From Clostridium sp. (GTDB lineage Bacteria > Bacillota > Clostridia > TANB77 > CAG-508), in assembly GCA_052174015.1 (NCBI GenBank), contig JBQMXM010000001.1, forward strand, positions 27,962 through 91,961: DNA of 64,000 nucleotides, in the 5' to 3' direction. Position 1 is the first letter of the stretch. The number at the start of each line of letters is the position of its first letter. Positions 1-44,578 of this stretch are shown in pieces. A program made the translations under genes and the position numbers. The notes beneath the pieces are model-generated. The model ran no database searches and was not told the DNA's origin. It saw nothing but the letters and a program-made list of their open reading frames with translations.

Positions 1-31
1 GATGTGCTTAATTATATGCACATCTTTTTTT
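1..31 (+). terminator. Hairpin (gatgtgc/gcacatc stem) followed by a T7 run. It is a candidate intrinsic terminator for a plus-strand gene that ends upstream of the window.
   Basis: Perfect 7-bp inverted repeat at positions 1-24 followed by ttttttt. The gene it would serve is outside the window. Confidence 0.35.
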
Positions 32-92
32 CTATATTTTATTTTATATTTTTTCTATATTTTTTTATTTTTTAATTATTATATTATATATA

Positions 93-440
93 TTAATCTA
101 CAAAATTATATTTATCTTGCCATTTTTCTTTAAATATATTATATACTTCTTCTTCTATTCTAGGATTATCAAATGAAGAGTATACTTCTCCTTCTTCTTC
201 ATTTTCTTCTGTTAATTTTAATATAACTACATGTCCTTCATCTTCATCTACTTCTTCTTCGTCATCATACATAGGAGATAATACTACATATTCTTCACCT
301 TCAAATTCTATTAAATCTAAAAATTCAAATGCTGTATCTTTTCCATCTTCATCTGTTAATAATATTACTGCATTATTTACTTCTTGTAATTCTTCATCTG
401 TTACTTGTAAATCTTTTTCGTTATCCATTTTGTCCTCCAT
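93..440 (-). CDS. DUF1292 (UPF0473) family acidic protein, YrzB-like
   Basis: 115 aa, highly acidic, with the motif TDEDGKDTAFEFLDLIEFEGEEYVVL typical of DUF1292. It sits in the conserved position after ruvX and a UPF0297 gene, as in Bacillus yrzL-yrrK-yrzB. Confidence 0.75.
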   Translation of the reverse strand: MEDKMDNEKDLQVTDEELQEVNNAVILLTDEDGKDTAFEFLDLIEFEGEEYVVLSPMYDDEEEVDEDEGHVVILKLTEENEEEGEVYSSFDNPRIEEEVYNIFKEKWQDKYNFVD

Positions 441-552
441 TTTTTGATATTATTGATATTATACACTATTTTTATTTAAATTTAAAGTATTATTAATAAT
501 ATTACATAATTGTATTATATATTATTATTATATATATGTTTTAATACTTAAT

Positions 553-993
553 CTATACTTCTCTTCTTTTAATATATGAATTTAAGATATTAACTGCCGC
601 TAATTGATCTATTATTCCTTTTTTCTTACGACTTTTAATTTGCATTTCTGTCATAATTGTATTTGCTTCTATACTTGTATATCTTTCATCTTCTTCAAAT
701 ATTGGTATTTTTGGAAATTTGCATTTTAATTTATGTTTAAATTCTTTAGTTATTTTTGCTCTTTCTCCTTCTGTCCCATCTTCATTATATGGAATTCCAA
801 TAACAATTTCTTCTACATTATATTCTTCTATTATTTCAGCTATTCTTTTTAATAGTTTTCTATCTCTTGATTTTACAAAATCTTTTTCTTTTTTAGTATC
901 AATTGTTTCAAGTCCATATACAGTTATATTTAATGGGTCTGTTAATGCTATACCTGTTCTAGCATTCCCATAATCTATAGCCATTATTCTCAT
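553..993 (-). CDS. ruvX: Holliday junction resolvase-like RuvX (YqgF)
   Basis: The N-terminus MRIMAIDYGNARTGIALTD matches the RuvX/YqgF motif. Start moved to the internal ATG at 993 (GGTGG RBS 5 nt upstream); the ORF-track start at 1005 has no RBS. Confidence 0.85.
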   Translation of the reverse strand: MRIMAIDYGNARTGIALTDPLNITVYGLETIDTKKEKDFVKSRDRKLLKRIAEIIEEYNVEEIVIGIPYNEDGTEGERAKITKEFKHKLKCKFPKIPIFEEDERYTSIEANTIMTEMQIKSRKKKGIIDQLAAVNILNSYIKRREV

Positions 994-1005
994 TTTTACC
1001 ACCAT

Positions 1006-1257
1006 CTAATACTTTAAGTTTTCAAAATATTTTGTTAATAATTCTTCTATTATTTCTTCTTTTCCTAATTCTGTAATTATTTTTCTAGAATCATTATAGT
1101 TTGTAATATATGTAGGGTCATTTGTTTCTAAAAAACCTAAAATTTGATGTATAGGATTATATCCTTTTTCTATTAATGAATAATATACTTTTTTCAATTC
1201 TTTTGAAACATCTTTTGTTTCAAATAGGTTGAATTCTTTAGTTTCTTGATTTGTCAT
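1006..1257 (-). CDS. UPF0297 family protein (IreB/YrzL-like)
   Basis: 83 aa; LIEKGYNPIHQILGFLETNDPTYITNYNDSRKII matches the YrzL/IreB family. AGGAGG RBS upstream of the ATG at 1257. Confidence 0.8.
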   Translation of the reverse strand: MTNQETKEFNLFETKDVSKELKKVYYSLIEKGYNPIHQILGFLETNDPTYITNYNDSRKIITELGKEEIIEELLTKYFENLKY

Positions 1258-1281
1258 ATGCCCCTCCTTACTATATCCTTA

Positions 1282-2571
1282 TTATATATATATAACATCA
1301 TTTGAATATTCATTTTGATCAATATAATCTTCTAATTTTTTTGATATTACATCTAATGCTGTATTCTTATAATATGGTGTAACCACTATATTTATTTTCA
1401 TATTATCTTTATATAATATTTCTTTATCCGATTTTTCGTCTTTTTCTTGTATTTCTTCTGTTTCTTTTGTATCTTCTTTATCTACTTTCTTCTTATCAAT
1501 TTTTTCATCTACTTTTTCATCTTTTGAAGTTTCTGTTTCTACTTCTTGAATATCTATTGTTTCTTCTATTTGTTCTTCAGTATTTACATCTGTTTTGTTT
1601 AACTCATCATTTATAATAATACCTGTTTCAATTTTAAGTACTTCTATTTGTTCTATTTTTTCTTTAAATTCTTTTAATATTTTCTCTATTTGATGTTTTT
1701 GTTTTCCTGGAAATGCTAATAGGAATCTTGGACCCATATATCTAACATATATTGTATCTGGAATTTGTTTTAATAATTCTTCATATATTTTTTTAGATAT
1801 TTGCTCTATAACTATATTTCCACCTTGTCTTGTGAATTTTTGATTTATTTCCTCTATATTTAAAATTTTAATCATTGTTAATTGTGATATAACTGTCTCA
1901 TCTAATCTTCTTTTTCCTTCTGTTAACATATATTCAAAACTCTTCATATTTGAATATTTATCATCTCTAACCATATTTTCTAAGGCAGATTCATAACCTA
2001 ATGTTAAAATTGTATCAAGCATTGCTCCTCTTAGTATATTTAATATTTCTACATCAATTGAATCAAATGCATGTGATTTTGAAGATTCTATTACCCAATA
2101 TCCTAAATACATATTATCTTTTAAAAATGGTAGAAATATTGATGATTTAGCTTGTCTAAAATTAACATTTGTATATATTAAGTTTTCTTCTGTTTCGTCT
2201 AATGTTAAATATTTCACATCATTATTTTTTATACTTGTCTTATATATATCTAATAATTGCATTTTTAATATTTCTTCTTTATCTTGTTCAGGAATATTTG
2301 TCATTTTTATTACATAATTTATTCCATTAAAATGTACTATAGTAGAATAGTCTACATTTAATTTTGTTAAAAGTAGGTTGTTTAATTTTTCCATTTTATC
2401 CATTACAGATACTGAAGATGATGCAATTTCAATGATTTCTTTCATTATGTATAATTTATTCATCTTCTTTTTAGATCTATTTACTAATTTTAAATTATGA
2501 TTAGTATGTAGATTATATGCGACTAACGCTATTATTAATATTACTTCTAAAATTACTATTCCTATTATCAA
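1282..2571 (-). CDS. Membrane-anchored protein with a GAF-like region and a degenerate GGDEF domain (GGEEF replaced by MGPRF), plus an acidic C-terminal tail
   Basis: N-terminal TM helix. The segment LTEGKRRL...ILNIEEINQKFTRQGGNIV...VRYMGPRFLLAFPGK is colinear with the GGDEF consensus (LTGLxNRR...LDIDxFKxINDxxGHxxGD...ARYGGEEFxxLLP), but the catalytic residues are replaced. Apparent TTG start. Confidence 0.5.
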   Translation of the reverse strand: MIIGIVILEVILIIALVAYNLHTNHNLKLVNRSKKKMNKLYIMKEIIEIASSSVSVMDKMEKLNNLLLTKLNVDYSTIVHFNGINYVIKMTNIPEQDKEEILKMQLLDIYKTSIKNNDVKYLTLDETEENLIYTNVNFRQAKSSIFLPFLKDNMYLGYWVIESSKSHAFDSIDVEILNILRGAMLDTILTLGYESALENMVRDDKYSNMKSFEYMLTEGKRRLDETVISQLTMIKILNIEEINQKFTRQGGNIVIEQISKKIYEELLKQIPDTIYVRYMGPRFLLAFPGKQKHQIEKILKEFKEKIEQIEVLKIETGIIINDELNKTDVNTEEQIEETIDIQEVETETSKDEKVDEKIDKKKVDKEDTKETEEIQEKDEKSDKEILYKDNMKINIVVTPYYKNTALDVISKKLEDYIDQNEYSNDVIYI

Positions 2572-2631
2572 TTTTAAATTTTCCTTTCATATTAAATTAT
2601 TAATTATTAATTATTAGTTATATATTTTAAC

Positions 2632-4275
2632 CTACATATTATTACCCCTTGATACTAATGGATAAATATTATGTGCTAAAAGTTTTATTTCTTCTATAAA
2701 TTTTTTAGGATATCCTGCAAGTTCAAACTTACATTGAATAATTTGTTCTAAATATTTTTGATATGCCATTAAATTAAATGGAATTGAAAATACATTTACA
2801 TTTTCTCTATTAAATAATGATATTCTTTCTTGCATAGTTGGACTATTATACATAGATATACCTCCAACTATTTGTTTTTTAGTTAATCCTCTAACTCCTA
2901 CTTCCTTATTTAAAACTATATTTATTTTTTCATCTGTTAATATATTTCTTAATTTTAATCCTTTTAAAAATTCTGTTAATGGTTGAATTGTAAGGATGTC
3001 TAATGATTGTACAAGATATATTTCTTTTGCTAATTGAAAATATTCAAGTTCTGTTTCAAAATCTGAATCTATTAATATAACTGTATGATTCTTATATAAT
3101 GTATTTATAACATTATATGGTGAAACTTCTAATTTCATTCCTCCAGGTACTGAAGTATATACTGTTAAATTATTATCTACTTGTATGCCTTGTGCTATGC
3201 CTTTATCTAATTTTAATATAGATATTTGAGCGATTTGTTTTAATCTCTCATCACTATTTGTAGACATATAGTATGAATTCTTATTTTTTGTAACATCTAA
3301 TATTGCTGTATTTATTCCTAATTTTGAAAACAATACTGCAATTGTATTTACTAAAAATGATACTCCATTTTTAGTTGTTCCTACAAATATTACTGCTTTC
3401 TTATTTTGATAATTTAAACTCCCTGTGTCATATCTCATTTTAGATACATTATTTTGCGTTTGTACAACATTTGGCTTTATTTCTTTTACTGCACTTACTA
3501 CACTCTGTTTTTCAACTGGTTGCTCTACAACTTTTGATACTATTTCTTTTTGCACTATAGCTCTATCTTGTTCTACAGTTTTAACATTTGAATTATTAAA
3601 TCTTTTTACAATTTCATTTTCATTTCTTAATACTGTTTGAACTTGTATAGGTAACTTGTTTAAAATATATTTTAATTCTTCATCATTATATTGTGTTGCT
3701 ATCTTATTAAATATTTCTGAATATTTATTAACTTTTTCTATATTTTTTTGATAAAAATCTAAAATACTTTTTAATTGTATCTTAGGTATTGCGCCTTCTT
3801 CTTCACTAATTATTCTTTCTTTTTCTACTACATTAATATTATAATACATCTTTGCTTCTTGTGAAGTTCTTGGTTTTTTTAACAAGTTACATACATTAGT
3901 TATTTTTCTATCTTTACCTATCAAAGCATTGTATATACCTATTTTAAATAGTTGTTCTAAAAATTGTTCTCCAAAATTCCTATTTTCTTTAGTTATTAAA
4001 ACTACAGGTATAATTTGTTCATTTTTGTTTATAGAAATATCAGTTATCTTATCTAAAATGGAAATTAAATTTTTATCATGTTTATCATTAGAAATTTCTT
4101 CTAAATTTTCATCTAATACTATTACATCATAATCTTTTACTGTTTCCAATTCTTTTATAACTGAATTATAATAATATACATTTTTGTATATTAATACTTC
4201 ATTATTAAGTTTTTGATATTTATTAATAACTAATTCTGATATTTTTTCACTGCTTACTGCAAATAATACTTTCAT
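2632..4275 (-). CDS. Receiver-like N-terminal domain plus MinD/ParA-like C-terminal domain with a degenerate Walker A (TadZ/CpaE-like architecture, probably a pseudo-ATPase)
   Basis: N-terminal region VLFAVSSEK...DVIVLDENLE is CheY-like. The C-terminal region KAVIFVGTTKNGVSFLVNTIA...VILIDSD is ParA-fold-like, but GKS/T is replaced by GVS. Start placed at the ATG at 4275 (AAAGGATGG RBS); it overlaps the stop of the upstream gene (TAATG). Confidence 0.45.
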   Translation of the reverse strand: MKVLFAVSSEKISELVINKYQKLNNEVLIYKNVYYYNSVIKELETVKDYDVIVLDENLEEISNDKHDKNLISILDKITDISINKNEQIIPVVLITKENRNFGEQFLEQLFKIGIYNALIGKDRKITNVCNLLKKPRTSQEAKMYYNINVVEKERIISEEEGAIPKIQLKSILDFYQKNIEKVNKYSEIFNKIATQYNDEELKYILNKLPIQVQTVLRNENEIVKRFNNSNVKTVEQDRAIVQKEIVSKVVEQPVEKQSVVSAVKEIKPNVVQTQNNVSKMRYDTGSLNYQNKKAVIFVGTTKNGVSFLVNTIAVLFSKLGINTAILDVTKNKNSYYMSTNSDERLKQIAQISILKLDKGIAQGIQVDNNLTVYTSVPGGMKLEVSPYNVINTLYKNHTVILIDSDFETELEYFQLAKEIYLVQSLDILTIQPLTEFLKGLKLRNILTDEKINIVLNKEVGVRGLTKKQIVGGISMYNSPTMQERISLFNRENVNVFSIPFNLMAYQKYLEQIIQCKFELAGYPKKFIEEIKLLAHNIYPLVSRGNNM

Positions 4276-4865
4276 TAATTTATCCATCCTTTAGTAATTA
4301 TAGTAAATATTAATGGTAGAATTTCAATTACTGCAAAAATAGCTAATATCATAACTCTTTTTTTTCTGCTATTTTTCATACTTTCTTCATCATCTCTAAA
4401 GATTTTATCATGTGAGAAACTAATAATTAACAATATTATTGTTAGTGGTATAAATATAAATGCTAATATTTTTAATATATATAATATTATTGCAAGCCAT
4501 ATTTTACCATTGTATTTTTCTTTTAAATTTTCTAAATCTGTAATTGCATTTTGTCCAAATATAGATAATTTTGTTTTTTTGTTTTCAATATTATTTTTTA
4601 TTTTATTATTTATTTGTTCACCTTGTTTATTTATTTGATTTGTTGCATTATTATTTTGATTATTCTTTTTATTTGAATCTCCTAAATCAAATATCTTAGT
4701 TCCAAAGTTCTTATTTATATCTACATTTTCTTGATTTCCTTTTAGTCTAATATCATCTCCAAAAACATTAGGAATATCTACATTTGTTGCTTTAACTATT
4801 AAAGTAGTATTTAATATACAAAAAAATACAATTAATAATATACTAATTTTTTTAATATTTTTCAC
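4275..4865 (-). CDS. Hypothetical envelope protein: N-terminal signal peptide/TM and C-terminal double TM, Asn-rich
   Basis: 196 aa. N-terminal hydrophobic segment ISILLIVFFCILNTTLIVKA, with two predicted TM helices near the C-terminus. GTG start with a GAGAGG RBS. Translationally coupled to the downstream gene. Confidence 0.45.
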   Translation of the reverse strand: MKNIKKISILLIVFFCILNTTLIVKATNVDIPNVFGDDIRLKGNQENVDINKNFGTKIFDLGDSNKKNNQNNNATNQINKQGEQINNKIKNNIENKKTKLSIFGQNAITDLENLKEKYNGKIWLAIILYILKILAFIFIPLTIILLIISFSHDKIFRDDEESMKNSRKKRVMILAIFAVIEILPLIFTIITKGWIN

Positions 4866-5060
4866 TTATTACCTCTCTATCTTCTTTTTATTATTTAAAA
4901 TTATTTTTCTACCTATTTACTATATATTTTCTTTTGTATATATTACTTTAATTATACTTACAATCCTATATTTTTTCAACTAATTTTATATATTAATTAC
5001 AAATACTTAATAATAAAAAGAGGAATCTTTAGATTCCTCTTGCCTCTACTCTATATATTA

Positions 5061-5915
5061 TTAATTTTTCTTAATTTTTCCTATTAATAATTTTCCTGAT
5101 TTTTCTACAACTTCTAAATTATAATTTGTTTCTGTATAGTTTGATACATCTTCTTTTGATAGTTTAGGACTCCATCCATCTCTATATCTTACATTTACTG
5201 TATATGTTTTTACTCCATTTTCTTCTTTTAATTCACCTTTAGTTATAGTAACATCATATACTCCTGCACCTGTTGGTTGTTCTATTTTAACTAAATCTTC
5301 TTTAGAATAATATTCTAAATTTTTTAATGATATTCCGTTTACAAATGTTTTTTCACTTGCTGCTTTTAATTGAGCACCTTTTACATATATTGAATTATCA
5401 TCTCCAGCTTTTAAATATTTTTTTGCATCTTTAGATAATTGATTTGCTCTGAATTTTCTAACATTGTTTAATTCAACTGTTATTGCTGCTTTTGTTGAAT
5501 CTGAAAGTTCTTTATATGATTTACCAGCTTTTTCTGCTTCTGTACTTATATATAAGTCAACTAATTTTCTTTGTTCTTTTTTAAATATATTATTTGCTAT
5601 TTTTGCTTTTTCTACATTATTTATTGCTCTTGGTTGAGTAGTTTTGGCTTTTTGGTTATCTTCTTTTTTGTTTTCTTCTTGTTTATTTTCTTCTTGTTTT
5701 GCTTCTCTTAATTTTTTAAGTTCTGCTAAATTTTTTTCATTTTGTTCTTGTACTTTTTGTAAATGAAGTTTTGTTTGACTTTCTATTTTTTTAATTTCTT
5801 TTATTTTTAAACTAGCTGTTAATTGTAATACTCCTATTAATATTATTAATAACACTATTAAAGTATATAAAAATACTTTGATTTTATCTTTTTTTGGCTT
5901 GTTATTTTCTTCCAT
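5061..5915 (-). CDS. Hypothetical membrane-anchored coiled-coil protein with a C-terminal beta-rich domain
   Basis: 284 aa. N-terminal TM helix, then a Lys/Glu-rich coiled-coil segment, then a Gly/Val/Tyr/Thr-rich C-terminal domain. Strong GGAGG RBS. First gene of an apparent four-gene operon. Confidence 0.5.
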   Translation of the reverse strand: MEENNKPKKDKIKVFLYTLIVLLIILIGVLQLTASLKIKEIKKIESQTKLHLQKVQEQNEKNLAELKKLREAKQEENKQEENKKEDNQKAKTTQPRAINNVEKAKIANNIFKKEQRKLVDLYISTEAEKAGKSYKELSDSTKAAITVELNNVRKFRANQLSKDAKKYLKAGDDNSIYVKGAQLKAASEKTFVNGISLKNLEYYSKEDLVKIEQPTGAGVYDVTITKGELKEENGVKTYTVNVRYRDGWSPKLSKEDVSNYTETNYNLEVVEKSGKLLIGKIKKN

Positions 5916-6201
5916 TTTTTCCTCCGTTTTATTATATTTTTGATTAATTGAATTTTAACATATTTTAAAAATTTTTGTAATAATTATTACATTTCTATTT
6001 CAATTTTTCACGATTTTTTTCGCACTATATTTTTAGTGCTTATCCCACATTTTTAATCTTTCCAAAATATTAATATAATCCATAAATTCAACTAATCTAT
6101 ATACAAATTATTAATACTATACTTCAATATTATTAAATTATACCATTGTTTTACTTTTTTTAAATTTATGATAAAATACTATATAATTAAAGGAGAAATT
6201 T

Positions 6202-7458
6202 ATGAACTATACACCAATTAATAATGTTTTAGGAATAATTTGTGAATATAATCCATTTCATAATGGACATTTATCACATATAGAAAAAAGTAAAAAATTA
6301 ACTAATGCAACTCATACTATTGCTTTAATGAGTGGAAATTTTACTCAAAGAAGTGAACCTGCAATTATTGATAAATGGTCTAGAGCTGAAATGGCTATTT
6401 TAAATGGTGTTGATTTAGTTATTGAATTACCTAATATATTTGCAACTGCTTCTGCAGAAGATTTTGCATATGGTGCAATCAAAATATTTAAGGAATTAAA
6501 AATTGTATCTAAGCTTTCTTTTGGTAGTGAATGTGGAGATATTAAAAAGTTAGAAAATTTAGCAGACCTATTTTTAATTCAACCTGAAGAATTTATGTAC
6601 CATTTAGAAAATGCTTTATCTACGGGGGCATCATATCCGTCAGCTTTATCTAAAGCTACGGATTTAACATTAAAAAGTAAGATATATAGTGATATTTTAA
6701 ATAATCCTAATAATGTTTTAGGGATAGAATATATTAAACAAATCAAACAACAAAACTTTCCAGTTACTGCAATTACAATTAAAAGAAATGAACCACATAA
6801 TACTGATGATGTTGCTACTATAGGTAATATCTCAAGTGGAAGTAGAATTAGAAAAGCAATTATACAAAATGAAGAGTTTAAACAAAGTATCCCACAAAAT
6901 GTATACAATATATTATTAAATAATTTAAAATATATAACTACATCTTCATTAAAACCTTTTGAATCTATACTCTTCTATAATATATTAACAATGAGTTTAG
7001 AAGAACTTGCAAATACACAAGATGTTTCTGAAGGTTTAGAAAATCGTATTAAAAAAGCAGCATTTATTTCTAAAAACTATGAAGAACTAGTATCAAATAT
7101 TAAATCTAAAAGATATACTGAAAGTAAGGTTCGTCGTATTCTTTTAAATATATTACTTAAAACTACTAAAAAAGATATGCATACTGCAAAATCAAGTAAA
7201 CCATATATACGAGTTTTAGGATTTAATAACAAAGGTAAAGACTTAATTAAGTTAATAGCTGAAAACAATCCTAAATTGGATATTATTGTATCTGTAGCAA
7301 GTTTTGAAAAAGAAAATATAAACAAATCAAAGTCAAGAATATTTAACAAAGATATATTAGCAACAGACCTTTATTCTCTTTCTACTACTCCATATTTACC
7401 TATAAAGTTAGACTATACTCAAAAGGTTGTATACATAAATAATGATAAAAACTCATAA
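6202..7458 (+). CDS. tmcAL: tRNA(Met) cytidine acetate ligase TmcAL (YlbM-like nucleotidyltransferase)
   Basis: N-terminus GIICEYNPFHNGHLSHI matches TmcAL/YlbM. AAGGAG RBS 7 nt upstream of the ATG. Confidence 0.8.
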   Translation: MNYTPINNVLGIICEYNPFHNGHLSHIEKSKKLTNATHTIALMSGNFTQRSEPAIIDKWSRAEMAILNGVDLVIELPNIFATASAEDFAYGAIKIFKELKIVSKLSFGSECGDIKKLENLADLFLIQPEEFMYHLENALSTGASYPSALSKATDLTLKSKIYSDILNNPNNVLGIEYIKQIKQQNFPVTAITIKRNEPHNTDDVATIGNISSGSRIRKAIIQNEEFKQSIPQNVYNILLNNLKYITTSSLKPFESILFYNILTMSLEELANTQDVSEGLENRIKKAAFISKNYEELVSNIKSKRYTESKVRRILLNILLKTTKKDMHTAKSSKPYIRVLGFNNKGKDLIKLIAENNPKLDIIVSVASFEKENINKSKSRIFNKDILATDLYSLSTTPYLPIKLDYTQKVVYINNDKNS

Positions 7459-7534
7459 GTTACAATAATTTTTATACAATTTAATCATAATTTAAAAAAC
7501 AATAAATAAATATTAAATATATACATAAATAAAT

Positions 7535-7600
7535 AAAGAAAAGAAAAGAAAAGAAAAGAATAGAAAAGAAAAGAATAGAATAGAATAAAATTAAATTAAA
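7535..7600. repeat. Simple A-rich pentamer repeat (AAAGA/AATAG units) ending in gaatagaatagaat-aaattaaattaaa
   Basis: aaagaaaagaaaagaaaagaaaagaatagaaaagaaaagaatagaatagaataaaattaaattaaa read directly in the sequence. The 3' part recurs at 59034-59078. Confidence 0.7.
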
Positions 7601-7602
7601 AA

Positions 7603-7636
7603 GAAAATGTACAAAAATACATTTTCTTTTAATTTT
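7603..7636. terminator. Bidirectional intrinsic terminator between convergent tmcAL (+) and the pilin-like gene (-)
   Basis: Stem gaaaatgta/tacattttc with a 6-nt loop, flanked by an A-run 5' and a T-run 3'. Confidence 0.6.
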
Positions 7637-7772
7637 GTTTGTATATATATTTACATTATTTTAATCTTTTATCTTCCATTGTCCTGCACTTACTTTCTCT
7701 ATCATACTTCCATCTAAATGTACTACAGGTCTTAAAAAATTACTAGGATTATCCTCATCCATAAGATCATCT

Positions 7773-9035
7773 TCAAATATAACGAAAGCTCCGAGCAGGA
7801 GTTAAGCAAACCCCACTACAATGAGCAACACTAAAAAACCTATTATTGTGTATGCCATTAATATAACGAAAAGCCATCCAATATTCATTATCCTTAAATA
7901 TATGTCCTTTTAACTTTTCCTTACTTTCTTTCACCTTTGAATCTGTTACTAAATCCTTATCATATTGTTCTTCCGTATTAGTTATACTATAAGATTTACT
8001 ATCAAATCCTTTTTTATCTGCACTAAGTCCATTTTCTTGTGTGCTACTTATTGTTAGATAATATGTTTCTGGACATCTAGTTATTGGATTCATATAGTAT
8101 TTTTCAAATCCTTTTTTTTCATCTTCTGTAAAATCTGAGTATTGTTCACCTTTCATTATCTTAACTATATCTTCCATAGTCATACTTCTTGCACCAGAAC
8201 CAGTTAATGTTCTCATTTGGACTTCTTCTGTATACTTATTACCTATTTGATATGTTGTTGTAATTTTTTTAGCCCCTTTTCCATGTCCATACACGCTACA
8301 CGCTTTATGTAATTCTTCTTCTGCATATAACCAACCTGTTCCACCTTTAAGTGTAAACTTATTATTTTCTCCACCTACTATATCTCCTATAGGTTCTTTT
8401 GAGATTACTTTTATTTGATTATTAGCAGTAGATATAACTACCCATTCATTATTAGTATTTTTAGCTGTTACAGTTTGAGTGCCATATCTATTACCACCTG
8501 TTTGTACTGTACCTTCTTGACTTGTATATGTTAGTTTACTGTTATCAGTTACTCCCTTTGTTGGGTCATAATAAACTATATCTCCAATCTTTAAATCTAT
8601 AGGTGCTATCGGCGTAGTTGTTTGAGTTTCCGCTTGCCCTATTGATTTTCTTTTTATTATACCATTATCTATTTCATAATCTACTGTATATTCATCATGT
8701 TTTGTTTTAAATTTTAGTAATTTTCCATTTTCTTCTACATTTATTTCTCCTTCTAAACCTATACCTTGTTTATCTAATTCATCTTTAAAAGTAACTTTAT
8801 TAAATTTTCCATCTTTATTTGTAAAACTTGCACTATATGCTGTCATTATTCTGTCTTTTTCTTGTGCTATTTCTTGCTCTTGCTTACTTTCTCTTGACTT
8901 AAATATTAATCCATTTTGCCCAAGTGCTAAACTAAGTGCTACTCCTGCAAGTATTAGTAATACTATTATTGTAAGTACTAATGCAATTAGTGTTATACCA
9001 TTATTTGTATTATCATTTTTCTTTTGTTTATACAT
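7773..9035 (-). CDS. Large (420 aa) prepilin-type N-terminal domain protein (pilin/pseudopilin-like) with a non-canonical +5 residue (Ala instead of Glu)
   Basis: The N-terminus KKNDNTNNGITLIALVLTIIVLLILAG is a class III (type IV prepilin-like) signal, G|ITLIALV. The C-terminal 18 aa are encoded by an atypical GC-rich patch. AGGAG RBS. Confidence 0.55.
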   Translation of the reverse strand: MYKQKKNDNTNNGITLIALVLTIIVLLILAGVALSLALGQNGLIFKSRESKQEQEIAQEKDRIMTAYSASFTNKDGKFNKVTFKDELDKQGIGLEGEINVEENGKLLKFKTKHDEYTVDYEIDNGIIKRKSIGQAETQTTTPIAPIDLKIGDIVYYDPTKGVTDNSKLTYTSQEGTVQTGGNRYGTQTVTAKNTNNEWVVISTANNQIKVISKEPIGDIVGGENNKFTLKGGTGWLYAEEELHKACSVYGHGKGAKKITTTYQIGNKYTEEVQMRTLTGSGARSMTMEDIVKIMKGEQYSDFTEDEKKGFEKYYMNPITRCPETYYLTISSTQENGLSADKKGFDSKSYSITNTEEQYDKDLVTDSKVKESKEKLKGHIFKDNEYWMAFRYINGIHNNRFFSVAHCSGVCLTPARSFRYI

Positions 9036-9261: not shown

Positions 9262-9280
9262 TTAAAATTATTTTTAATTA

Positions 9281-10754: not shown

Positions 10755-10771
10755 CTATTTATTATTCTCCA

Positions 10772-18117: not shown

Positions 18118-20283
18118 TTAAATATATTTTAACAATCTATCAATTGATTCAATATAGTTTTGAAGCAACTCTTCATTATTTGTTATAGGGTTTACTTCTA
18201 ATAAATTTAATAATTCATTTATACTTTTTGTATTAAGATTCTTCATACTTTTAATATATTTTTCCTTATATCCTTTTTGAGTTGTAATTTTTTTATATAT
18301 TGTTGGTATTAGATATCTTGGAAAATCATATTTTATTTCTTCAAACATTCTAAAAATAAATTTACTTTGTAAAAACATATTATATTGTTCTTCTTCTGTA
18401 AAATTTTCTAATAATTTATCTATATTATCTACTATTAATGCTTTTGATTTTTCGTCTTCTAATGTTTGTTTTTCTTTATCATATTTTTTAAAAATATCAT
18501 GTATATATTTTAATATTTGAGCTTTAATATTAATATTTTCTATATTTTTTCTTATTCTTATCCTATTTATAAATTCTGAATATATTTTAAATTTTTGTTC
18601 TATATTTTCTGTATTATTAATATTATCTGGAGTTATATTTTTTAAAATATTTTCTATATATACATATTCATTCATTTGTGAATGTAATTCTATTAAAATA
18701 TCATTATGATATGTTCTAATTACATTTTTTTTCATAAATGATTTTTGTACTGCATGTCCTAATTCATGTATAATAGTTTTTGTAGTTAGATTACTTAAAA
18801 ATATCATATTATTTGCACTAGAATAAAAGCTTCTAAAACTAACTCGTTCATCATTACAAAAATATATATTTTCATCATTTATATATTCTTTAATTTTATT
18901 TGTATATTCTTTTCCAAATATTTTAAATATTTTTACTTCTTCTTTAATATCTTTCACTTTTAGCTTTTCTATTCTATATATTCCATTATATTTTATTTTT
19001 TTATATTTATCTATCTTATTTTTTTTATGTTCTTTTTGTTTTTCAACTTCTTTTTTGTTTTTAGAATTTCTATATTTTATTTTTAAAACTATACCATATA
19101 TGTATAATATATCTCTATGTTTTATTGTTTCATTAAATCTTTTAAAAGATATTCTATTTTTAAAGTATTCATAACATTCAGCATATACTCTTTCTTTTAA
19201 TTTTTCTTCAACATTATCTAGATATTTACTTAATTTTGTACCTTCTAAAAAAACTTCCGTTATATATGGATATATTTTATCTAATTTTTCTTTTTTTAAG
19301 TAATTATTAAATGATTTATATTTAAAAACTTTTTCTTCGTCTCTATACAATATAATATGTGAAATTATATATTCTTTAAATTGTTTTTTGAAAATTTTAT
19401 GCTTTATTTGTTCATCATATATATATTGATATATAAATTTTATTGGTTTTATTTTTTGATTATATTCTTGCTTTGTATAATTCTTTTTAAGCTTATTTAT
19501 TTTTTCTTCAACATATTCTTCTTGTTCTTTATGTATTTTTTTAATTAATTCATCTTTATCTACTTTATGTTTTATCTCAATTTTATATTTTTCTTTTAGA
19601 TTATTATTTTTATTTTTTCCTTTCCCTTTCTTCTTTTTATCTTTATTTTCTTTTTCAGTTTTCTTCTTTTCTTTAATATAGGATCTAATAAACTTTCTTA
19701 TATATGTATTAAAATTTTCTTTATATAATGAGTCATACTCATATTCTATTGCATTTTTAATATCTTTTATTATATCAACTTCTATATTATGCCCCTTTTT
19801 ATTTTCTTCTTCAATATATTTTTTAATATTTTCTAATTCTTCAAATGTATATATTTTACATATTTTTTCATTTATTTTTTTATTCTTTTTAATAAAGTAT
19901 TTATTAATTCTTAATATTTCATTTATGTTATGTATTAATTTTTTTCTATTACTCTCTGCTATTTTTCTTCTTGTTTTAGGCAAATTTATAGTTTGATATT
20001 TATCTATTATATTATATACATAGAAATTAAATCTTTTAATTTTAAAATTACTTAATGAATATGCATATTTGTTATATATAATATAAAAAAATAATTTTTG
20101 CTTTTCTTCTGTACTTAATTTTTCTCCTTCTAATTTTTTTAGTATAATTTCATTTTCATTAATTATTGAATTCTTTTTTTCTAAATATTCAAAAGTTTCT
20201 TCAAATGAATTAAATATTTTTTTACTAAATATCGGTAATTCTACTTTTCTAAATTTTATTTTACTTAAATCAAATTTTATCAT
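18118..20283 (-). CDS. Large lysine-rich hypothetical protein with an HExxHxxQ metallopeptidase-like motif (DUF4157-like?)
   Basis: 721 aa, very Lys/Glu/Ile-rich and largely helical. A single IIHELGHAVQKS motif near residue 500. No Walker or nucleotidyltransferase motifs. Confidence 0.5.
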   Translation of the reverse strand: MIKFDLSKIKFRKVELPIFSKKIFNSFEETFEYLEKKNSIINENEIILKKLEGEKLSTEEKQKLFFYIIYNKYAYSLSNFKIKRFNFYVYNIIDKYQTINLPKTRRKIAESNRKKLIHNINEILRINKYFIKKNKKINEKICKIYTFEELENIKKYIEEENKKGHNIEVDIIKDIKNAIEYEYDSLYKENFNTYIRKFIRSYIKEKKKTEKENKDKKKKGKGKNKNNNLKEKYKIEIKHKVDKDELIKKIHKEQEEYVEEKINKLKKNYTKQEYNQKIKPIKFIYQYIYDEQIKHKIFKKQFKEYIISHIILYRDEEKVFKYKSFNNYLKKEKLDKIYPYITEVFLEGTKLSKYLDNVEEKLKERVYAECYEYFKNRISFKRFNETIKHRDILYIYGIVLKIKYRNSKNKKEVEKQKEHKKNKIDKYKKIKYNGIYRIEKLKVKDIKEEVKIFKIFGKEYTNKIKEYINDENIYFCNDERVSFRSFYSSANNMIFLSNLTTKTIIHELGHAVQKSFMKKNVIRTYHNDILIELHSQMNEYVYIENILKNITPDNINNTENIEQKFKIYSEFINRIRIRKNIENINIKAQILKYIHDIFKKYDKEKQTLEDEKSKALIVDNIDKLLENFTEEEQYNMFLQSKFIFRMFEEIKYDFPRYLIPTIYKKITTQKGYKEKYIKSMKNLNTKSINELLNLLEVNPITNNEELLQNYIESIDRLLKYI

Positions 20284-26248: not shown

Positions 26249-27892
26249 TTATATTATCTCTAATTCTTCTCCTTTTATACTTATAGATAAATTCTTTAAT
26301 TGAATATATTTATCACTACAACTATTAATTATATTATTATTAATACTTTCTTTTAATAATTCTTTATCTTTAACATATTCCTCTTCTTCTAAAATACATT
26401 TTAATATATATTTTGTTCTAGGTTTTCCTTCTAAATTTAGTTCAAAATAATATATATTCAAATTATTACTACTTTTTATTAATTTTAATTCATATACATA
26501 TTTTTCATCTAATGAAACTATATACATTTTTGGTATATATTTAAGAAGTTCTTCTTTTCCTTTAATAACTTTAGAAATCACAATATTCCCTATAAGTTTT
26601 TCTAAACCATTAATTTTTTGTACATCTAAAAACGAAATATTATATTTTAAATATGATATATTATTAATTGGATTAACCTTTGGTACTATATTATTGATTT
26701 TTTTAATTTGTATTTTACCATCATTAATCTCTATATTTTCATTAATAACTGTAGTTTTCGGAAGTTTAATTTCTCTTGTATTACCTTCTATCTCTATATA
26801 TAGTATATATTTACAAATATAGTTACATATATCTGATATTTTAAAATCAAAATAATATAATCCGTCTAAGTTTTTTCTAATATATCCATAATGTTTTTTT
26901 GAATTTTGAATTTTAAATTTTTCATTTTGATAAACTTCTTTATTAATATTTTCTGCATCAGAAATACATTCAGTTATATCACTAGATTCTAAATACACTT
27001 TAATTTTTCTAATATCTAAAAATTCTAAAGTTTCATTAATATATTTATTAATAGATAATTCAAACCAGATATATTCTCCTTTATCTTTTGAATTTAATAT
27101 ACCTATACTTTGTATTTCAGTTTTATATTTAATATTTCCTGTATCATCTATTTTTTCAGAAGATATTTTTTCTTTCAATTCTTTAACTTCTTTAATTTTT
27201 TTAACTTCTTTAATTTCATTATCTATTTTTATCTGATTTTGAAAAAAGTTATCCACATTTTGTACACATTTAGTGTTTATATCTATTTTTTGTTCTCTAT
27301 TTTTTTTATTTATATGCTTTTTATTATTTCTATTCAGCTTATTTTTTCTTCTATTTTCTTTCCTTATTTCTTTCTTACTTTTTTTAATATTATTATTTAA
27401 ACTATTATTTACACCATTAATATTACTACTATTATTAGTAGTAATATCATTATTATTATTGTTATTTAAATTAGTACTTTCTGTATCTATTGTTGATATA
27501 TTTGAATGAATATAGAATACATTATCAGTTATGTATAAATTAAATAACTTCCCTTTATATGTTTGATTTGGTATTTTTAACATATTATTATCTAATTCTA
27601 AATAATATGATTTTTCCATATCTATATTTTTTAAATCAATATCAAAATAATATATATTTTTTTCATTTTCTTTATTTGATTTTGTTTTTAAAATACTTAT
27701 CTTTTCCATATATTTCTTATCTATAGATACAAAGGAAAGCTCTATTTTATCTTCTTTAGCTTCTAATAATCCATTAATATACATTGCATTAGGCTTATTT
27801 GCTAATATTTGTATTTCTGTTACATTTATCTTTTGTGAAATTGTTTTTTCTTCTTGTTTTTTATCTTCGTTCATTTCACTACCTAATTTCAA
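26249..27892 (-). CDS. Hypothetical 547-aa protein with a central poly-Asn/Lys low-complexity linker
   Basis: A long ORF with consistent codon usage. It has two globular halves separated by an N/K-rich linker (NNNNNNDITTNNSSNINGVNNSLNNN...KKNREQK). No TM helices. Confidence 0.4.
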   Translation of the reverse strand: MKLGSEMNEDKKQEEKTISQKINVTEIQILANKPNAMYINGLLEAKEDKIELSFVSIDKKYMEKISILKTKSNKENEKNIYYFDIDLKNIDMEKSYYLELDNNMLKIPNQTYKGKLFNLYITDNVFYIHSNISTIDTESTNLNNNNNNDITTNNSSNINGVNNSLNNNIKKSKKEIRKENRRKNKLNRNNKKHINKKNREQKIDINTKCVQNVDNFFQNQIKIDNEIKEVKKIKEVKELKEKISSEKIDDTGNIKYKTEIQSIGILNSKDKGEYIWFELSINKYINETLEFLDIRKIKVYLESSDITECISDAENINKEVYQNEKFKIQNSKKHYGYIRKNLDGLYYFDFKISDICNYICKYILYIEIEGNTREIKLPKTTVINENIEINDGKIQIKKINNIVPKVNPINNISYLKYNISFLDVQKINGLEKLIGNIVISKVIKGKEELLKYIPKMYIVSLDEKYVYELKLIKSSNNLNIYYFELNLEGKPRTKYILKCILEEEEYVKDKELLKESINNNIINSCSDKYIQLKNLSISIKGEELEII

Positions 27893-29757: not shown

Positions 29758-30225
29758 TTAATTCATTTGTGCTTTAAATACAGAAATATATCCTGAAATA
29801 CTATTACCTGTCAATTTAGAAAATAATTCTTGAAATTTCCCATTAAAATATTCTCTATATTCTTCTTTTGCTTTTTCACTTATCTTATTATCTTCAAAAA
29901 ATATCTCTAATGTCCTATTAATACAATATGCTTCAAATTTTGCTTCAAAATCTGATTCAGATATTTCTTCTATTTTTTCATCATAAAATTTACCACTATC
30001 TTTAGCTTCATTTAGTGCTTTTTGAATTGATTGCATATATACTTGTTCTGAATTAGCTAAATCTGACTTTTTTAGTGTTTGTTCTGTATTTTTTAAAATA
30101 TTAATGTCTTCTTTTTCGTATGCTTTTTGAATAACTATTGCAAGTACTGTTGCAAGTACTAAAATAATGATTACTAGTATACCTATTGTTATACCATTGT
30201 TATTTTTAACTTTTATATATTTCAT
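29758..30225 (-). CDS. Prepilin-type N-terminal domain protein (pilin/pseudopilin-like), 155 aa
   Basis: N-terminus KVKNNNGITIGILVIIILVLATVLAIV is a class III signal-like segment. Last of four tandem paralogs. Confidence 0.5.
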   Translation of the reverse strand: MKYIKVKNNNGITIGILVIIILVLATVLAIVIQKAYEKEDINILKNTEQTLKKSDLANSEQVYMQSIQKALNEAKDSGKFYDEKIEEISESDFEAKFEAYCINRTLEIFFEDNKISEKAKEEYREYFNGKFQELFSKLTGNSISGYISVFKAQMN

Positions 30226-30266
30226 ATTTATTCCTTTATATATTATTTAATTTATACTATTCTCTT

Positions 30267-30680
30267 TTACATTAACTCTACATCATATTCATATATAGTT
30301 TGTTTTTTTTCATCTTTTATAATATATTTTTTATCTATTTTTTCTACTGTATATTTTAATTTTTCTTTTGCCATTTTTTCTTCAAATTCTTTTTTTACAA
30401 GTTGAAATATTTTTTCTTCTATCTCCTCATCTGCTTTTGCATTTGACATTACTATATCATACTTTCTATGATATATATCTAAAAATATATCTTCTATTTG
30501 CTTATTATTATATTTTTGTTTTTGTGATATTGTTGAATTTAATAATTCATTATTATTTGTAGATAAATTAATAACTACACCTGCAATTATTGTTAATATT
30601 ATTATTGTAAGTACTAATAATATCATTGTTATACCATTATTGCTTTTTAACTTGTATTTCAATACATTATTTGATAACAT
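30267..30680 (-). CDS. Prepilin-type N-terminal domain protein (pilin/pseudopilin-like), 137 aa
   Basis: N-terminus KLKSNNGITMILLVLTIIILTIIAGVV. Confidence 0.5.
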   Translation of the reverse strand: MLSNNVLKYKLKSNNGITMILLVLTIIILTIIAGVVINLSTNNNELLNSTISQKQKYNNKQIEDIFLDIYHRKYDIVMSNAKADEEIEEKIFQLVKKEFEEKMAKEKLKYTVEKIDKKYIIKDEKKQTIYEYDVELM

Positions 30681-30693
30681 TCATATCCCTTTC

Positions 30694-31116
30694 CTATTTC
30701 ATAATTTCTTTTATTTCAATTTCTTTTTCAATCTTTTTATCTTTACCCCTATGTAAAGTCATAATTATTGATTTTGTTTCATCAGAATATCTTAAATCTC
30801 TTAAATACTCACCATCTTTTTTTTCTGCAAAAAAACGAAACTCTCTATATACTTCAATTATTTTTTCCCCTACTTCTTTTTCAGTAATTCCAGTATCTTC
30901 TGTAAGAAGATTTAATTCTAAATATATTCTTTTAATTTCTTGTTTTACCTGTATTTCTTCTATCTCATCAATTGTTTTTTGTGCTTCTTTTACATTTTTA
31001 TTTCCATCTCTACTAATATATATATATGATACCATTGATACTATTATTGATAATGTTAAAATTGTAATTACTAAAGTAACTAAAGTTATACCTTGATTTT
31101 TCTTAAAATCTATCAT
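30694..31116 (-). CDS. Prepilin-type N-terminal domain protein (pilin/pseudopilin-like), 140 aa
   Basis: N-terminus FKKNQGITLVTLVITILTLSIIV. Overlaps the upstream paralog by 4 nt (ATGA). Confidence 0.5.
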   Translation of the reverse strand: MIDFKKNQGITLVTLVITILTLSIIVSMVSYIYISRDGNKNVKEAQKTIDEIEEIQVKQEIKRIYLELNLLTEDTGITEKEVGEKIIEVYREFRFFAEKKDGEYLRDLRYSDETKSIIMTLHRGKDKKIEKEIEIKEIMK

Positions 31117-43134: not shown

Positions 43135-43177
43135 ACTATTTCGCTCCTTTTCTTTAACTTATTACTTTATCAACTTA

Positions 43178-43429: not shown

Positions 43430-43578
43430 TTTTCTACCTCACTTTTTTTATTATCTATTATTTATTGTTTGTTTTTTGTTTTTTTATTGTTTGTTTATTT
43501 CATTTTATATTAATTACATATAATAATATCATATCACATTATTTAATTTTATTATAGTATTATTATCATAATTTTAAA

Positions 43579-44574: not shown

Positions 44575-44578
44575 ATAT

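Follow-up and report, generated by a model that had tools for sequence, protein, structure and literature searches.

A conserved gene unit beside ireB in Clostridia encodes a receiver-like MinD/ParA-fold protein and a degenerate GGDEF protein

Which of four consecutive open reading frames in a gut Clostridia genome belong together, and what might their products do? The genes, g1 to g4, lie on the minus strand of a 64,000-nucleotide stretch of Clostridium sp. DNA (the window), with g1 at 5061..5915, g2 at 4275..4865, g3 at 2632..4275 and g4 at 1282..2571. The original prediction described a tightly spaced four-gene envelope operon that includes a protein of TadZ/CpaE architecture and a possible c-di-GMP receptor.

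Extent of the conserved gene unit

The four genes do not form a four-gene operon; the conserved unit is g2–g3–g4. Tight spacing holds for these three genes but not for g1, which is separated from g2 by 195 nt containing both a terminator-like hairpin and a promoter-like site. The hairpin (5018..5041, minus strand), a 10-bp stem followed by a T-run, lies immediately past the g1 stop codon, separates g1 from the module, and is the sole one found in a scan of positions 1..7800. The promoter-like site (TTGAAA-17-TATAAT, 4951..4979, minus strand) had the top score in this region (11/12) and is the likely start of a unit comprising g2–g3–g4 and possibly ireB onwards, as judged by a consensus match of a kind abundant in AT-rich DNA. 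The two sites form a pair upstream of g2, and no such pair was found within the unit in positions 1..7800.

The g1 product is a membrane protein with a single hydrophobic segment, in agreement with the predicted transmembrane (TM) segment, as well as a Lys/Glu-rich coiled region and a C-terminal domain. Family-profile searches assigned it to no family, its only six homologs are each at least 77% identical, and it was found in 0 of 84 related loci. It is an unrelated orphan and not a member of the conserved module. Co-conservation of g2, g3 and g4 is, in contrast, very strong. The order g3, g4, ireB, ruvX, DUF1292, with g2 as part of the conserved unit, is collinear in 83/84 loci from many species of uncultured gut Clostridia, and ireB is collinear with the module in all 84. 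Searches returned at least 567 matches in species-representative genomes and more than 4,200 protein clusters, as well as 446 clusters at 50% identity. The module spans hundreds of uncultured gut Clostridia, all of its loci coming from one Clostridia clade. In the distant locus L088, g3 directly precedes ireB and g4 is missing, and g4 is therefore not universally required.

Downstream of g4, after 24 nt, lies ireB (1006..1257, minus strand; PF06135, 1.7e-24), a cell-wall regulator gene for a phosphoprotein of the IreB/ReoM family. It is abutted, with a gap of 0 nt, by ruvX (553..1005, minus strand), which encodes a YqgF-type nuclease, and a DUF1292 (YrzB-like) gene (93..440, minus strand) follows after 112 nt; both were assigned by family-profile search and synteny. 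Given these gaps, and because the scan of 1..7800 found no terminator-like site inside g2–g3–g4–ireB–ruvX–DUF1292, the g2–g3–g4 transcription unit most likely runs on into ireB–ruvX–DUF1292.

Architecture of the g2, g3 and g4 products

The g2 gene encodes 196 amino acids from a GTG start preceded by a GAGAGG ribosome-binding site. The three hydrophobic segments found bear out its description as a signal peptide/TM protein, and correspond to an N-terminal signal or TM segment and a C-terminal TM hairpin ending ...LPLIFTIITKGWIN, with an Asn-rich external stretch between them. The TAATG overlap is present, with the g2 TAA and g3 ATG at 4277..4273. A positional ortholog with the C-terminus ...CQvLPLIFAIVvkGWrG occurs in nearly all of 65 loci with a recovered g3 start, at 2–5 nt, occasionally up to ~30 nt, upstream of g3. 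By tblastn, g2 is 33% identical to its counterparts in L001–L004. Translation of g2, which encodes a small membrane protein, is coupled to that of g3.

The g3 product is a cytoplasmic protein of 547 amino acids with no hydrophobic segment, in which profile, model and fold searches delineated a pseudo-receiver, a helical domain, a disordered linker and a MinD/ParA-fold domain. Its true start is at 4275 rather than 4287, since all homologs begin MKVLFAV. The structure model (pLDDT 88) and the fold searches support the predicted fusion of a CheY-like N-domain to a MinD/ParA fold, and the TadZ/CpaE architecture is likewise upheld: the best Foldseek match, spanning both domains, was 3fkq, with MinD, ParA, Soj and FlhG next, and the N-domain of CpaE2 was among the best matches in a receiver-fold search. 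FleN and BcsQ were also listed among the structural neighbours. TadZ/CpaE HMMs gave no match to g3, nor was there a sequence match to 3fkq.

Residues 1–120 (3916..4275, minus strand) adopt the receiver fold. The acidic pair after β1 is missing, replaced by V7-S8-S9, and the phospho-acceptor position is D55 here; of 123 relatives, only 13 have Asp at this position, 67 having Ser and 14 Gly. Residue 121, mapped to the β5 Lys, is also variable (N 40, Q 18, K 17). Judged by these residues, the N-domain is predicted to be a pseudo-receiver without phospho-acceptor chemistry. The helical domain (residues 125–228; 3592..3903, minus strand), with pLDDT >90 at 165–228 and a disordered loop at 152–160, carries the family-wide motif KYxxxFxxIxxQY...LPxxV; no separate fold match was obtained for it. 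The variable linker (residues 229–290; 3406..3591, minus strand) is disordered, with pLDDT <50. Among 65 species orthologs, 48 have RGRP AT-hooks in this linker, most relatives carrying two, and the window protein and its clade have none. Most family members also end in an amphipathic tail, FSxxMxxTLxxM(K/R), which is absent from the window g3. The helical hydrophobic moment of these tails falls in the top 1–3% of shuffles and is comparable to that of the C-terminal tail of the window's MinD, by analogy a membrane-targeting sequence. Distant members have MinD-like basic-hydrophobic C-termini, such as GLKYVKNMFGKF and KKQFKRKFKLFGK. The hooks and the tail, on which part of the model described below was built, are thus features of the relatives and not of the window g3 itself.

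The MinD/ParA (SIMIBI) fold domain occupies residues 291–547 (2635..3405, minus strand). Its P-loop, GTTKNGVS (residues 299–306; 3358..3381, minus strand), has T300 in the position of the signature Lys, K302 within the loop and V305 in the position of the Walker A Lys, so that this lysine is indeed missing, as had been noted. Across the family the P-loop is an almost invariant GT[ST]KNGT[ST]. Family members have T or A at position 300 and T, V or I at position 305, where K never occurs; K302 is kept in 135/143, and G299 and G304 vary little or not at all. Position 329, equivalent to the MinD switch I catalytic Asp, is Thr in 140/148. The Walker B Asp, retained in g3 according to a weak hhalign alignment with the MinD encoded in the window, and the N456-K457 (NK) pair are near-invariant, and D327, D403 and D405 are extremely conserved. 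A canonical MinD (SGKGGVGKTT) is encoded elsewhere in the window, and g3 is therefore no stand-in for MinD.

The g4 gene encodes 429 amino acids from a TTG start. A single N-terminal TM segment, the only hydrophobic segment found, is followed by a basic stretch (residues 1–24; 2500..2571, minus strand), and the remaining domains are therefore predicted by the positive-inside rule to be cytoplasmic. The conserved domain at residues ~45–195 (1987..2439, minus strand) is possibly GAF-like: a PDB search with a profile of 61 orthologs gave just two matches, 3o5y (E 0.18) and 1vhm/YebR (E 0.29), both GAF-fold proteins and neither significant, and no Pfam GAF match was found in g4. The predicted membrane anchor and GGDEF homology are present; the GAF-like assignment is tentative. 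Residues ~205–429 (1285..1959, minus strand) form a degenerate GGDEF (palm) domain; a search with the family profile finds diguanylate cyclase structures at E ~1e-11 and PF00990 is matched by 17/20 family members, whereas the window protein itself gives only sub-threshold matches, to SiaD and NCBIfam LapD. A Glu/Lys/Asp-rich, lineage-specific insert within this domain (1387..1617, minus strand) is absent from orthologs of 352–379 amino acids.

MGPRF (1723..1737, minus strand) does stand in place of GG(D/E)EF, as R[YF]MGP[KR]F in 79/84 orthologs. The reported replacement of DxD by NIE is off by three in register, the equivalent in profile alignment to diguanylate cyclase being K235-I-L237 (K/R-I-x in the family) and not N238-I-E240, but the absence of an acidic metal site stands. 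The non-catalytic call for g4 was correct; its reading as a c-di-GMP receptor loses the usual determinant, since the RxxD I-site is absent in all 79 orthologs inspected, where the equivalent tetrads are AAQY, SSEY, PSQY and similar. The guanine-contacting equivalents are partly kept, with N243 invariant and N252 nearly so. On sequence grounds, g4 is a membrane-anchored, presumably catalytically dead GGDEF protein without any catalytic or I-site residue.

Possible roles of the module

Beyond the original prediction, this analysis adds the likely pseudo-receiver nature of the g3 N-domain, the AT-hooks, the C-terminal amphipathic tails and the invariable linkage to ireB–ruvX–DUF1292. We lean, tentatively, towards g2–g3–g4 being a conserved module at the membrane that serves as a scaffold or in positioning and has no enzymatic activity. 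It would be co-transcribed with ireB–ruvX–DUF1292 and probably has a housekeeping function in these Clostridia, not an accessory one for pili. Past the fold assignments, we infer all of this model. g3 would act like TadZ/CpaE or BcsQ as a dimerising adaptor that brings partners to the membrane or places them there, perhaps binding nucleotide and hydrolysing it poorly. Anchorage would come from g2 and/or g4 and, in most relatives, also from g3's own amphipathic tail, while the two linker AT-hooks of most relatives would tie g3 to AT-rich chromosomal DNA as well. Because both have been lost in the window lineage, its g3 would be wholly reliant on g2 and g4. Input to the module, by ligand sensing or protein docking, may enter through the GAF-like/GGDEF-like part of g4. 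Cell-wall or division control is the leading guess for the output because the ireB neighbourhood is invariable; operon history alone may account for this adjacency.

Alternatively, g3 might be a genuine TadZ/CpaE-type localisation factor for type IV pilus machinery, with g2 and g4 as pilus-associated membrane partners. The two-domain architecture is identical, with 3fkq and the CpaE2 N-domain as top structural matches. Pilin-like ORFs occur in the window (9035..7773 and ~29.7–31.6 kb), and in its nearest relatives prepilin peptidase, PilB-like ATPase and PilC-like genes lie 2–7 kb downstream, with pilin-like genes upstream. The suggested link to pilin-like genes nevertheless does not extend to the family as a whole: apart from the closest relatives, L001–L006, and sporadic cases elsewhere, loci have no type IV pilus gene within 10 kb (~75/84 have none), whereas ireB–ruvX–DUF1292 always adjoins. 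The machinery near the module in relatives belongs to the PilB/PilC type and includes an MshEN domain; it is not a tad locus. TadZ/CpaE HMMs and the 3fkq sequence gave no match, and GTTKNGVS mismatches the TadZ consensus K/RGGxGxS/T (bioRxiv 10.64898/2026.07.08.737194). This pilus role appears unlikely. It is very improbable that the genes are functionally unrelated neighbours held together by shared ancestry alone. One clade supplies all loci and its synteny could be inherited, but gene order, orientation and the few-nt g2/g3 spacing persist at 30–50% protein identity next to variable flanks upstream of g2, and g2 and g3 are coupled by TAATG.

Control of g3 by a second messenger, c-di-GMP or a related nucleotide bound by the degenerate GGDEF domain of g4, would fit the real GGDEF homology, the partly kept guanine contacts and a REC-HD_5/HD (HD-GYP-like) gene ~5 kb downstream in the same species. 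The MshEN domain on the relatives' PilB-like protein, a c-di-GMP-binding module in other systems, would fit as well. BcsE and FleQ–FleN offer a precedent for coupling c-di-GMP sensing to MinD-like proteins (PMC7439463). Such a receptor is doubtful, however: the I-site through which degenerate GGDEF receptors usually bind c-di-GMP is gone, the metal-binding Asp residues have become K/R-I-x and GGDEF has become MGPKF, the window and related loci showed no active diguanylate cyclase, and L088 carries g3 without g4. The near-strict conservation of the P-loop, Walker B Asp and NK pair could instead mean that g3 is no pseudo-enzyme but an unconventional NTPase that works, since a dead site would be expected to drift. 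g3 would then be a ParA/MinD-type switch using K302, cycling on membrane and/or nucleoid to position cargo, and the AT-hooks and tails would supply the DNA and membrane surfaces that ParA and MinD use. Against this stand the consistent loss of both canonical lysines and the catalytic Asp (Thr at position 329), the missing appendages in the window lineage, and the non-canonical Walker A-like motif of TadZ, the closest architectural relative (bioRxiv 10.64898/2026.07.08.737194); we think it improbable. That g3 is a true response regulator, phosphorylated on D55 by a cognate histidine kinase such as the one encoded ~4–5 kb downstream in the same species (L086), is extremely unlikely. The receiver fold and the Asp at the end of β3 fit, but Asp is a minority residue at position 55, the acidic pair is lacking and the β5 Lys position varies.

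Comparison with known systems

Degenerate GGDEF proteins of the PelD/LapD/PopA type bind c-di-GMP via an RxxD I-site or an EAL domain. g4 resembles them in its GGDEF homology, lost catalytic motifs, membrane anchor and sub-threshold LapD match, but it has neither the I-site nor an EAL domain. In the E. coli-type cellulose secretion system BcsE–BcsF–BcsQ(R), BcsE has a degenerate GGDEF domain, BcsQ is MinD-like and BcsF is a small membrane protein. BcsE and its partner BcsF recruit BcsRQ to the inner membrane (PMC7439463). Compared at the level of domains, the present module differs in fusing a receiver-like domain to the MinD fold, in having a GGDEF-like protein that is itself membrane-anchored and lacks an I-site, and in its lack of linked cellulose synthase genes.

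With MinD (and ParA/Soj, FlhG/FleN), g3 shares the Walker B Asp, by a weak hhalign alignment, and, in distant members, basic-hydrophobic C-terminal tails. It lacks the deviant Walker A KGGxGK[ST], including both of its lysines, and has Thr in place of the switch I catalytic Asp; a receiver-like N-domain is added and the genome already encodes a canonical MinD.

TadZ binds ATP and hydrolyses it poorly. It positions the Tad machinery and has an atypical receiver domain (bioRxiv 10.64898/2026.07.08.737194; PMC11407121). g3 is like the TadZ/CpaE protein 3fkq from Eubacterium rectale in combining an atypical receiver N-domain with a MinD/ParA fold whose non-canonical Walker A motif lacks the catalytic lysine. 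The two have no detectable sequence similarity, and their P-loops differ, GT[ST]KNGT[ST] in g3 and K/RGGxGxS/T in TadZ (bioRxiv 10.64898/2026.07.08.737194). Additional parts of g3 are a helical domain and an extended disordered linker in which two AT-hooks are usual, and most of its family add the amphipathic tail. g3 does not lie in a tad locus but is always beside ireB–ruvX–DUF1292 and paired with g2 and g4.

Gene order and spread of the module

Three minus-strand genes make up the conserved module: g2 (4865..4275; 196 aa, GTG start, GAGAGG ribosome-binding site) encodes a small membrane protein, g3 (4275..2632; 547 aa) a pseudo-receiver joined to a MinD/ParA-fold domain, and g4 (2571..1282; 429 aa, TTG start) a membrane-anchored, degenerate GGDEF protein. 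The TAA of g2 overlaps the ATG of g3 as TAATG, visible in ...GGATGGATAAATTAATGAAAGTA..., and the start of g3 is fixed at 4275 since all homologs begin with MKVLFAV. The original prediction had placed these genes in a tightly spaced four-gene envelope operon with g1 (5915..5061, minus strand; 284 aa). This largely holds for g2–g4, whose ORFs are real, but not for g1. The g1–g2 gap measures 195 nt and contains a terminator-like hairpin (5041..5018; a 10-bp stem followed by a T-run), the only one in 1..7800, as well as the top-scoring promoter-like site, TTGAAA-17-TATAAT (4979..4951). g1 was not found in the 84 related loci; it has six homologs in 5.8 billion proteins, each at least 77% identical, and the NCBI source label of its protein is a 'Clostridium sp.' MAG. 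The region is bounded upstream by a HIGH_NTase1 (TmcAL-like) gene divergent from g1 (6202..7458, plus strand), among the very few plus-strand genes in the window. Downstream of g4, the gaps are 24 nt to ireB, 0 nt to ruvX and 112 nt to the DUF1292 gene, and no terminator-like site was found through ireB–ruvX–DUF1292. These short, terminator-free gaps suggest that g2-g3-g4-ireB-ruvX(-DUF1292) is likely a single transcription unit.

Co-conservation of the module, checked across related genomes, is borne out. By tblastn, g3, g4, ireB, ruvX and DUF1292 are collinear in 83 of the 84 loci, and clustering of all ORFs recovered these five families in 82–85 loci, while the genes upstream of g2 differ from locus to locus. 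tblastn detected g2 itself in just 14 loci; where the g3 start was recovered (65 loci), however, a g2-like protein of 130–240 aa almost always precedes g3, usually at a distance of 2–5 nt and at times up to ~30 nt. Two distant loci depart from the pattern. In L088 (36% identity) ireB directly follows g3 and there is no g4, and L087 carries a tandem g3 duplication (4-1056 and 1195-3144). In 32 loci, including L015 and L082, a membrane-anchored protein of ~410 aa lies directly upstream of g2, the place held in the window by the orphan g1; by eye, the L082 protein resembles a cell-wall hydrolase.

The 90% clusters hold more than 4,200 relatives of g3, all of them unnamed and lacking a Pfam domain. 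The 446 among 50% representatives span 550–1434 aa, with conserved N- and C-terminal parts and a variable middle. A pattern scan of species-representative genomes, built on a 7-sequence C-domain alignment, gave at least 567 confirmed matches. Among the 80 matches listed, all are MAGs of uncultured gut Clostridia, for example Clostridium sp. CAG:508, Ca. Scatovivens, Ca. Merdicola and UBA7001.

The window has a GC content of ~22%, and nearly all its genes are minus-strand housekeeping genes, including GtrA, glycosyltransferases, RecO, Era, CysS, LysS, FtsH, ExoVII, NusB, ScpB and SSB. An FtsQ-type POTRA gene followed by two DUF881 genes and one DUF1290 gene (45355..42673) resembles what we take to be a Firmicute division cluster. 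Four large ORFs of 721, 547, 559 and 667 aa (20283..18118, 27892..26249, 49945..48266 and 62269..60266) gave no Pfam match at E ≤ 0.001. A defence-system reading of g1–g4 was rejected on the housekeeping context and a PADLOC scan that found no defence system. In L001–L004, four independently assembled contigs of one related species, ruvX matches fall in two overlapping frames (~13464-13917; calls of 31 aa and 129/134 aa), and the PilB-like and PilC-like genes (~18.7-21.7 kb) are likewise split into pieces, which may reflect real frameshifts, pseudogenisation or recoding. An alternative genetic code, considered because gene calls in relatives appeared broken up, was rejected for the window: five long ORFs are closed by TGA under the standard code, and code 4 merges nothing substantial.

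Fold, pocket and appendages of g3

Modeling of g3 from a 20-sequence alignment reached a pLDDT of only 47, whereas 150 diverse relatives raised it to 88. The latter model comprises a (beta/alpha)5 domain (residues 1-120), a helical domain (125-228), a disordered linker (229-290) and an alternating beta/alpha domain (293-545). The C-terminal domain has the alpha/beta fold of MinD/ParA (SIMIBI) NTPases, with fold-search scores of 20.3 for MinD (4v02), 20.1 for ParA (3ea0), 18.7 for FleN, 17.5 for BcsQ and 16.4 for 3fkq, a Eubacterium rectale chain that we take to be TadZ, in keeping with a reference title in PMC11217815. The N-domain has the REC (beta/alpha)5 fold, scoring 12.9 against the N-domain of CpaE2 (4myr) and 11.5–12.9 against ordinary response regulators.

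Sequence searches returned little of this. Pfam, NCBIfam and PADLOC scans of g1–g4 gave nothing significant, the only sub-threshold matches being those of g4 to SiaD, LapD and Cas10-palm models; window g3 matched neither NCBIfam nor the Pfam models CbiA, AAA_31, ParA and MipZ. Against PDB sequences, the g3 profile matched only through its low-complexity linker. Among the relatives, 15 match CbiA (best E 1.1e-5; one inspected score, 16.7 bits, misses the gathering cut-off) and three match MipZ. Peptidase_S49 matches in 15 relatives were treated as spurious, the two inspected being below threshold and falling on the MinD-fold domain. With hhalign, the g3 C-domain gave nothing against an approximate E. 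coli MinD sequence and a weak alignment to window MinD at Walker B only.

Residue conservation was counted in the 150-sequence alignment. In the N-domain, phospho-acceptor position 55 is Ser in 67/123, Gly in 14/123 and Asp in just 13/123; the acidic pair after beta1 is absent from the family (positions 7-9 are V-S/N-N), and position 121, mapped here to the beta5 Lys, is variable. The phospho-acceptor Asp, acidic pair and beta5 Lys of a typical receiver are thus not conserved in the family. In the C-domain, the P-loop reads G299-[T/A]-[S/T]-K302-N-G304-[T/V]-[S/T]306, GTTKNGVS in the window. Neither lysine position ever holds K: at 300 (signature Lys) the residue is T or A, at 305 (Walker A Lys) it is T, V or I, so that both lysines of the deviant Walker A motif xKGGxxGK[ST] are missing. 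K302, kept in 135/143, sits at the position of MinD G13. D327 is retained and the equivalent of the MinD catalytic Asp is T329 in 140/148, the counterparts of MinD D38/D40 being mapped by model topology and not by superposition. D403 and N456 are invariant, position 405 is Asp in 138/139 and position 457 is Lys in 131/137; in the weak hhalign match, D403 lies opposite the Walker B Asp of window MinD. From these columns, the g3 C-domain is judged not to be a canonical ATPase, yet its pocket appears strongly constrained, and binding of a nucleotide or phosphate ligand is plausible. That it is an active NTPase of an unconventional kind is conceivable.

RGRP AT-hooks occur in the linker of 48 of the 65 species orthologs; among full-length representatives, 59 of 87 have them. 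Usually there are exactly two per protein, such as KRRGRPRK and KRGRGRPKK in Clostridium sp. CAG:508, whose L082 protein bears the C-terminal tail as well. Most orthologs also have a spacer followed by a C-terminal F[ST]xxMxxTLxxM[KR]xx[YF]. Ranked against shuffles, this tail falls in the top 1–3% for helical hydrophobic moment and is comparable in this to the C-terminal tail of window MinD, by analogy a putative membrane-targeting helix. Distant g3 members bear MinD-like basic-hydrophobic tails (GLKYVKNMFGKF, KKQFKRKFKLFGK and GGFGLFKRR), as do both L087 paralogs (GGFMRNIFGRK and GLKYVKNMFGKF). AT-hooks and tail are both missing from g3 in the clade formed by the window, the relative P0003 and L001-L006, which has instead a longer g2 than other relatives and a Glu/Lys/Asp-rich insert of ~77 residues in g4.

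The window also encodes a MinD (57911..57120) with a canonical SGKGGVGKTT motif and a C-terminal KKGIFRKIASIFKK tail, beside a 219-aa ORF that is possibly MinC (57104..56445) and RodA/FtsW (56503..55331). The organism therefore appears to have a normal Min system besides g3.

The membrane proteins g2 and g4

g2-like proteins have three hydrophobic segments and a C-terminus of the form ...CQvLPLIFAIVvkGWrG, which in the window reads ...EILPLIFTIITKGWIN. In g4, a single hydrophobic segment lies at the N-terminus with a basic stretch after it, and the positive-inside rule predicts a cytoplasmic location for all that follows. The homology of g4 to the GGDEF domain is clear at the family level: 17 of 20 relatives match PF00990, window g4 itself being below threshold, and the family profile aligns to diguanylate cyclase structures with E ~1e-11 (9e-12). 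The alignment places K235-I-L237 at the DxD site, N243 at the conserved Asn, G251-N252 at the GD and M279-G-P-R-F at the GGEEF. RYMGP[KR]F occurs in 79 of the 84 orthologs and the DxD equivalent is [KR]-I-x, so that the GG(D/E)EF motif and the metal-binding Asp pair are both absent. Opposite the RKSD I-site of the aligned cyclase, the family profile has a non-conserved s-k-d-y and window g4 has I-P-D-T; no ortholog inspected has an RxxD at this site, which precedes the GGDEF position by five residues. For the N-domain (residues ~45-195), a profile of 61 orthologs gave two non-significant PDB matches, 3o5y (E 0.18) and 1vhm (E 0.29), both presumably GAF-fold proteins, and no Pfam GAF match was found in 20 members. 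A GAF-like fold is thus a suggestive, non-significant assignment.

Possible roles and relation to TadZ/CpaE

The data are consistent with an adaptor module that is non-catalytic, associated with the membrane and centred on a TadZ-like protein. As a scaffold, g3 would dimerise and be recruited to the membrane through g2 and g4, and in most species through its tail too; most species would additionally have it tied to AT-rich DNA. g4 would act as a sensor or docking subunit. IreB/ReoM is a PASTA-kinase substrate that controls peptidoglycan synthesis, and since ireB is invariably a neighbour, the module may serve in envelope or division control. The fixed place in front of ireB/reoM thereby offers a concrete hypothesis for an unstudied lineage.

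Three other roles are disfavoured because each failed one specific test. The original prediction was right about the TadZ-like architecture and the non-catalytic GGDEF domain; its suggestions of a c-di-GMP receptor or scaffold type and of a possible link to the pilin-like genes were not supported as to the receptor and the link. For g4 as a c-di-GMP receptor, the GGDEF homology speaks in favor and the missing RxxD against. A REC-HD_5/HD gene hints at cyclic-nucleotide turnover in the organism; it lies in L086, from the same species beyond the left edge of the window, where an Amidase_2 gene (opposite strand), a 689-aa histidine kinase and this 361-aa HD-GYP-like response regulator lie downstream of DUF1292 (6341-10903). 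A true response-regulator role for g3 would agree with the REC fold and is disfavoured by the poor conservation of the phosphorylation residues. For a pilus-specific role, prepilin peptidase, MshEN+T2SSE and T2SSF genes do lie 2–7 kb downstream of DUF1292, but only in the nearest relatives, L001-L006; a few other loci have scattered pilus-gene matches and the remaining ~75 have none within 10 kb. The window itself has a pilin-like 420-aa ORF (9035..7773) with a type IV prepilin-like N-terminus, NGITLIALVLTIIVLLILAG, in which Ala replaces Glu at +5; its N_methyl match is below threshold and its large C-terminal domain has no family. A pilin-like cluster of four small ORFs (175, 140, 137 and 155 aa; 31640..29758) includes two, at ~31110..30890, that resemble L001 pilin-like genes, one with a weak Pilin_N match. 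No pilus ATPase or platform gene was found in the window.

A bolder proposal, which we regard as improbable, is that g3 represents an undescribed ParA/MinD branch, with a lysine-shifted P-loop and a pseudo-receiver, that positions the AT-rich nucleoid relative to the membrane. With the two AT-hooks and C-terminal amphipathic helix of most species, g3 would tether or position the nucleoid under control of g4, a GAF-like/GGDEF-like membrane sensor, and its small membrane partner g2, coupled to IreB/ReoM. If true, a large order of gut Clostridia, uncultured so far, would couple chromosome or division-site organisation to the IreB/ReoM cell-wall pathway, with which the module is presumably always co-transcribed. 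We prefer the adaptor reading. The module occurs in several hundred species or more of gut Clostridia that are abundant, uncultured and low in GC (MAGs of the CAG-508, Ca. Scatovivens and Ca. Merdicola type). g2 and g3 have no Pfam or NCBIfam family, and the strictly conserved alternative P-loop GTSKNGTS, with both lysines absent, makes g3 a test case for ParA/MinD-fold proteins without canonical chemistry.

The closest known systems differ from the module in several respects. TadZ/CpaE, which has an atypical receiver domain and positions the Tad machinery (PMC11407121; bioRxiv 10.64898/2026.07.08.737194), carries a Walker A-like K/RGGxGxS/T (bioRxiv 10.64898/2026.07.08.737194), in contrast to GT[ST]KNGT[ST] in g3. 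It is encoded with tad/cpa locus genes, whereas TadA, TadB/C, Flp and TadV were not found in the window, and no sequence similarity to g3 was found for TadZ/CpaE models or 3fkq. Besides TadZ/CpaE, a precedent for the adaptor reading comes from cellulose secretion, where BcsE and its partner BcsF recruit BcsRQ to the inner membrane (PMC7439463). What g3 shares with TadZ/CpaE is the fusion of an atypical receiver domain to a MinD/ParA-like domain, a design that exists outside pilus loci as well. g2–g4 is thus a new, widespread family of an architectural kind already known.
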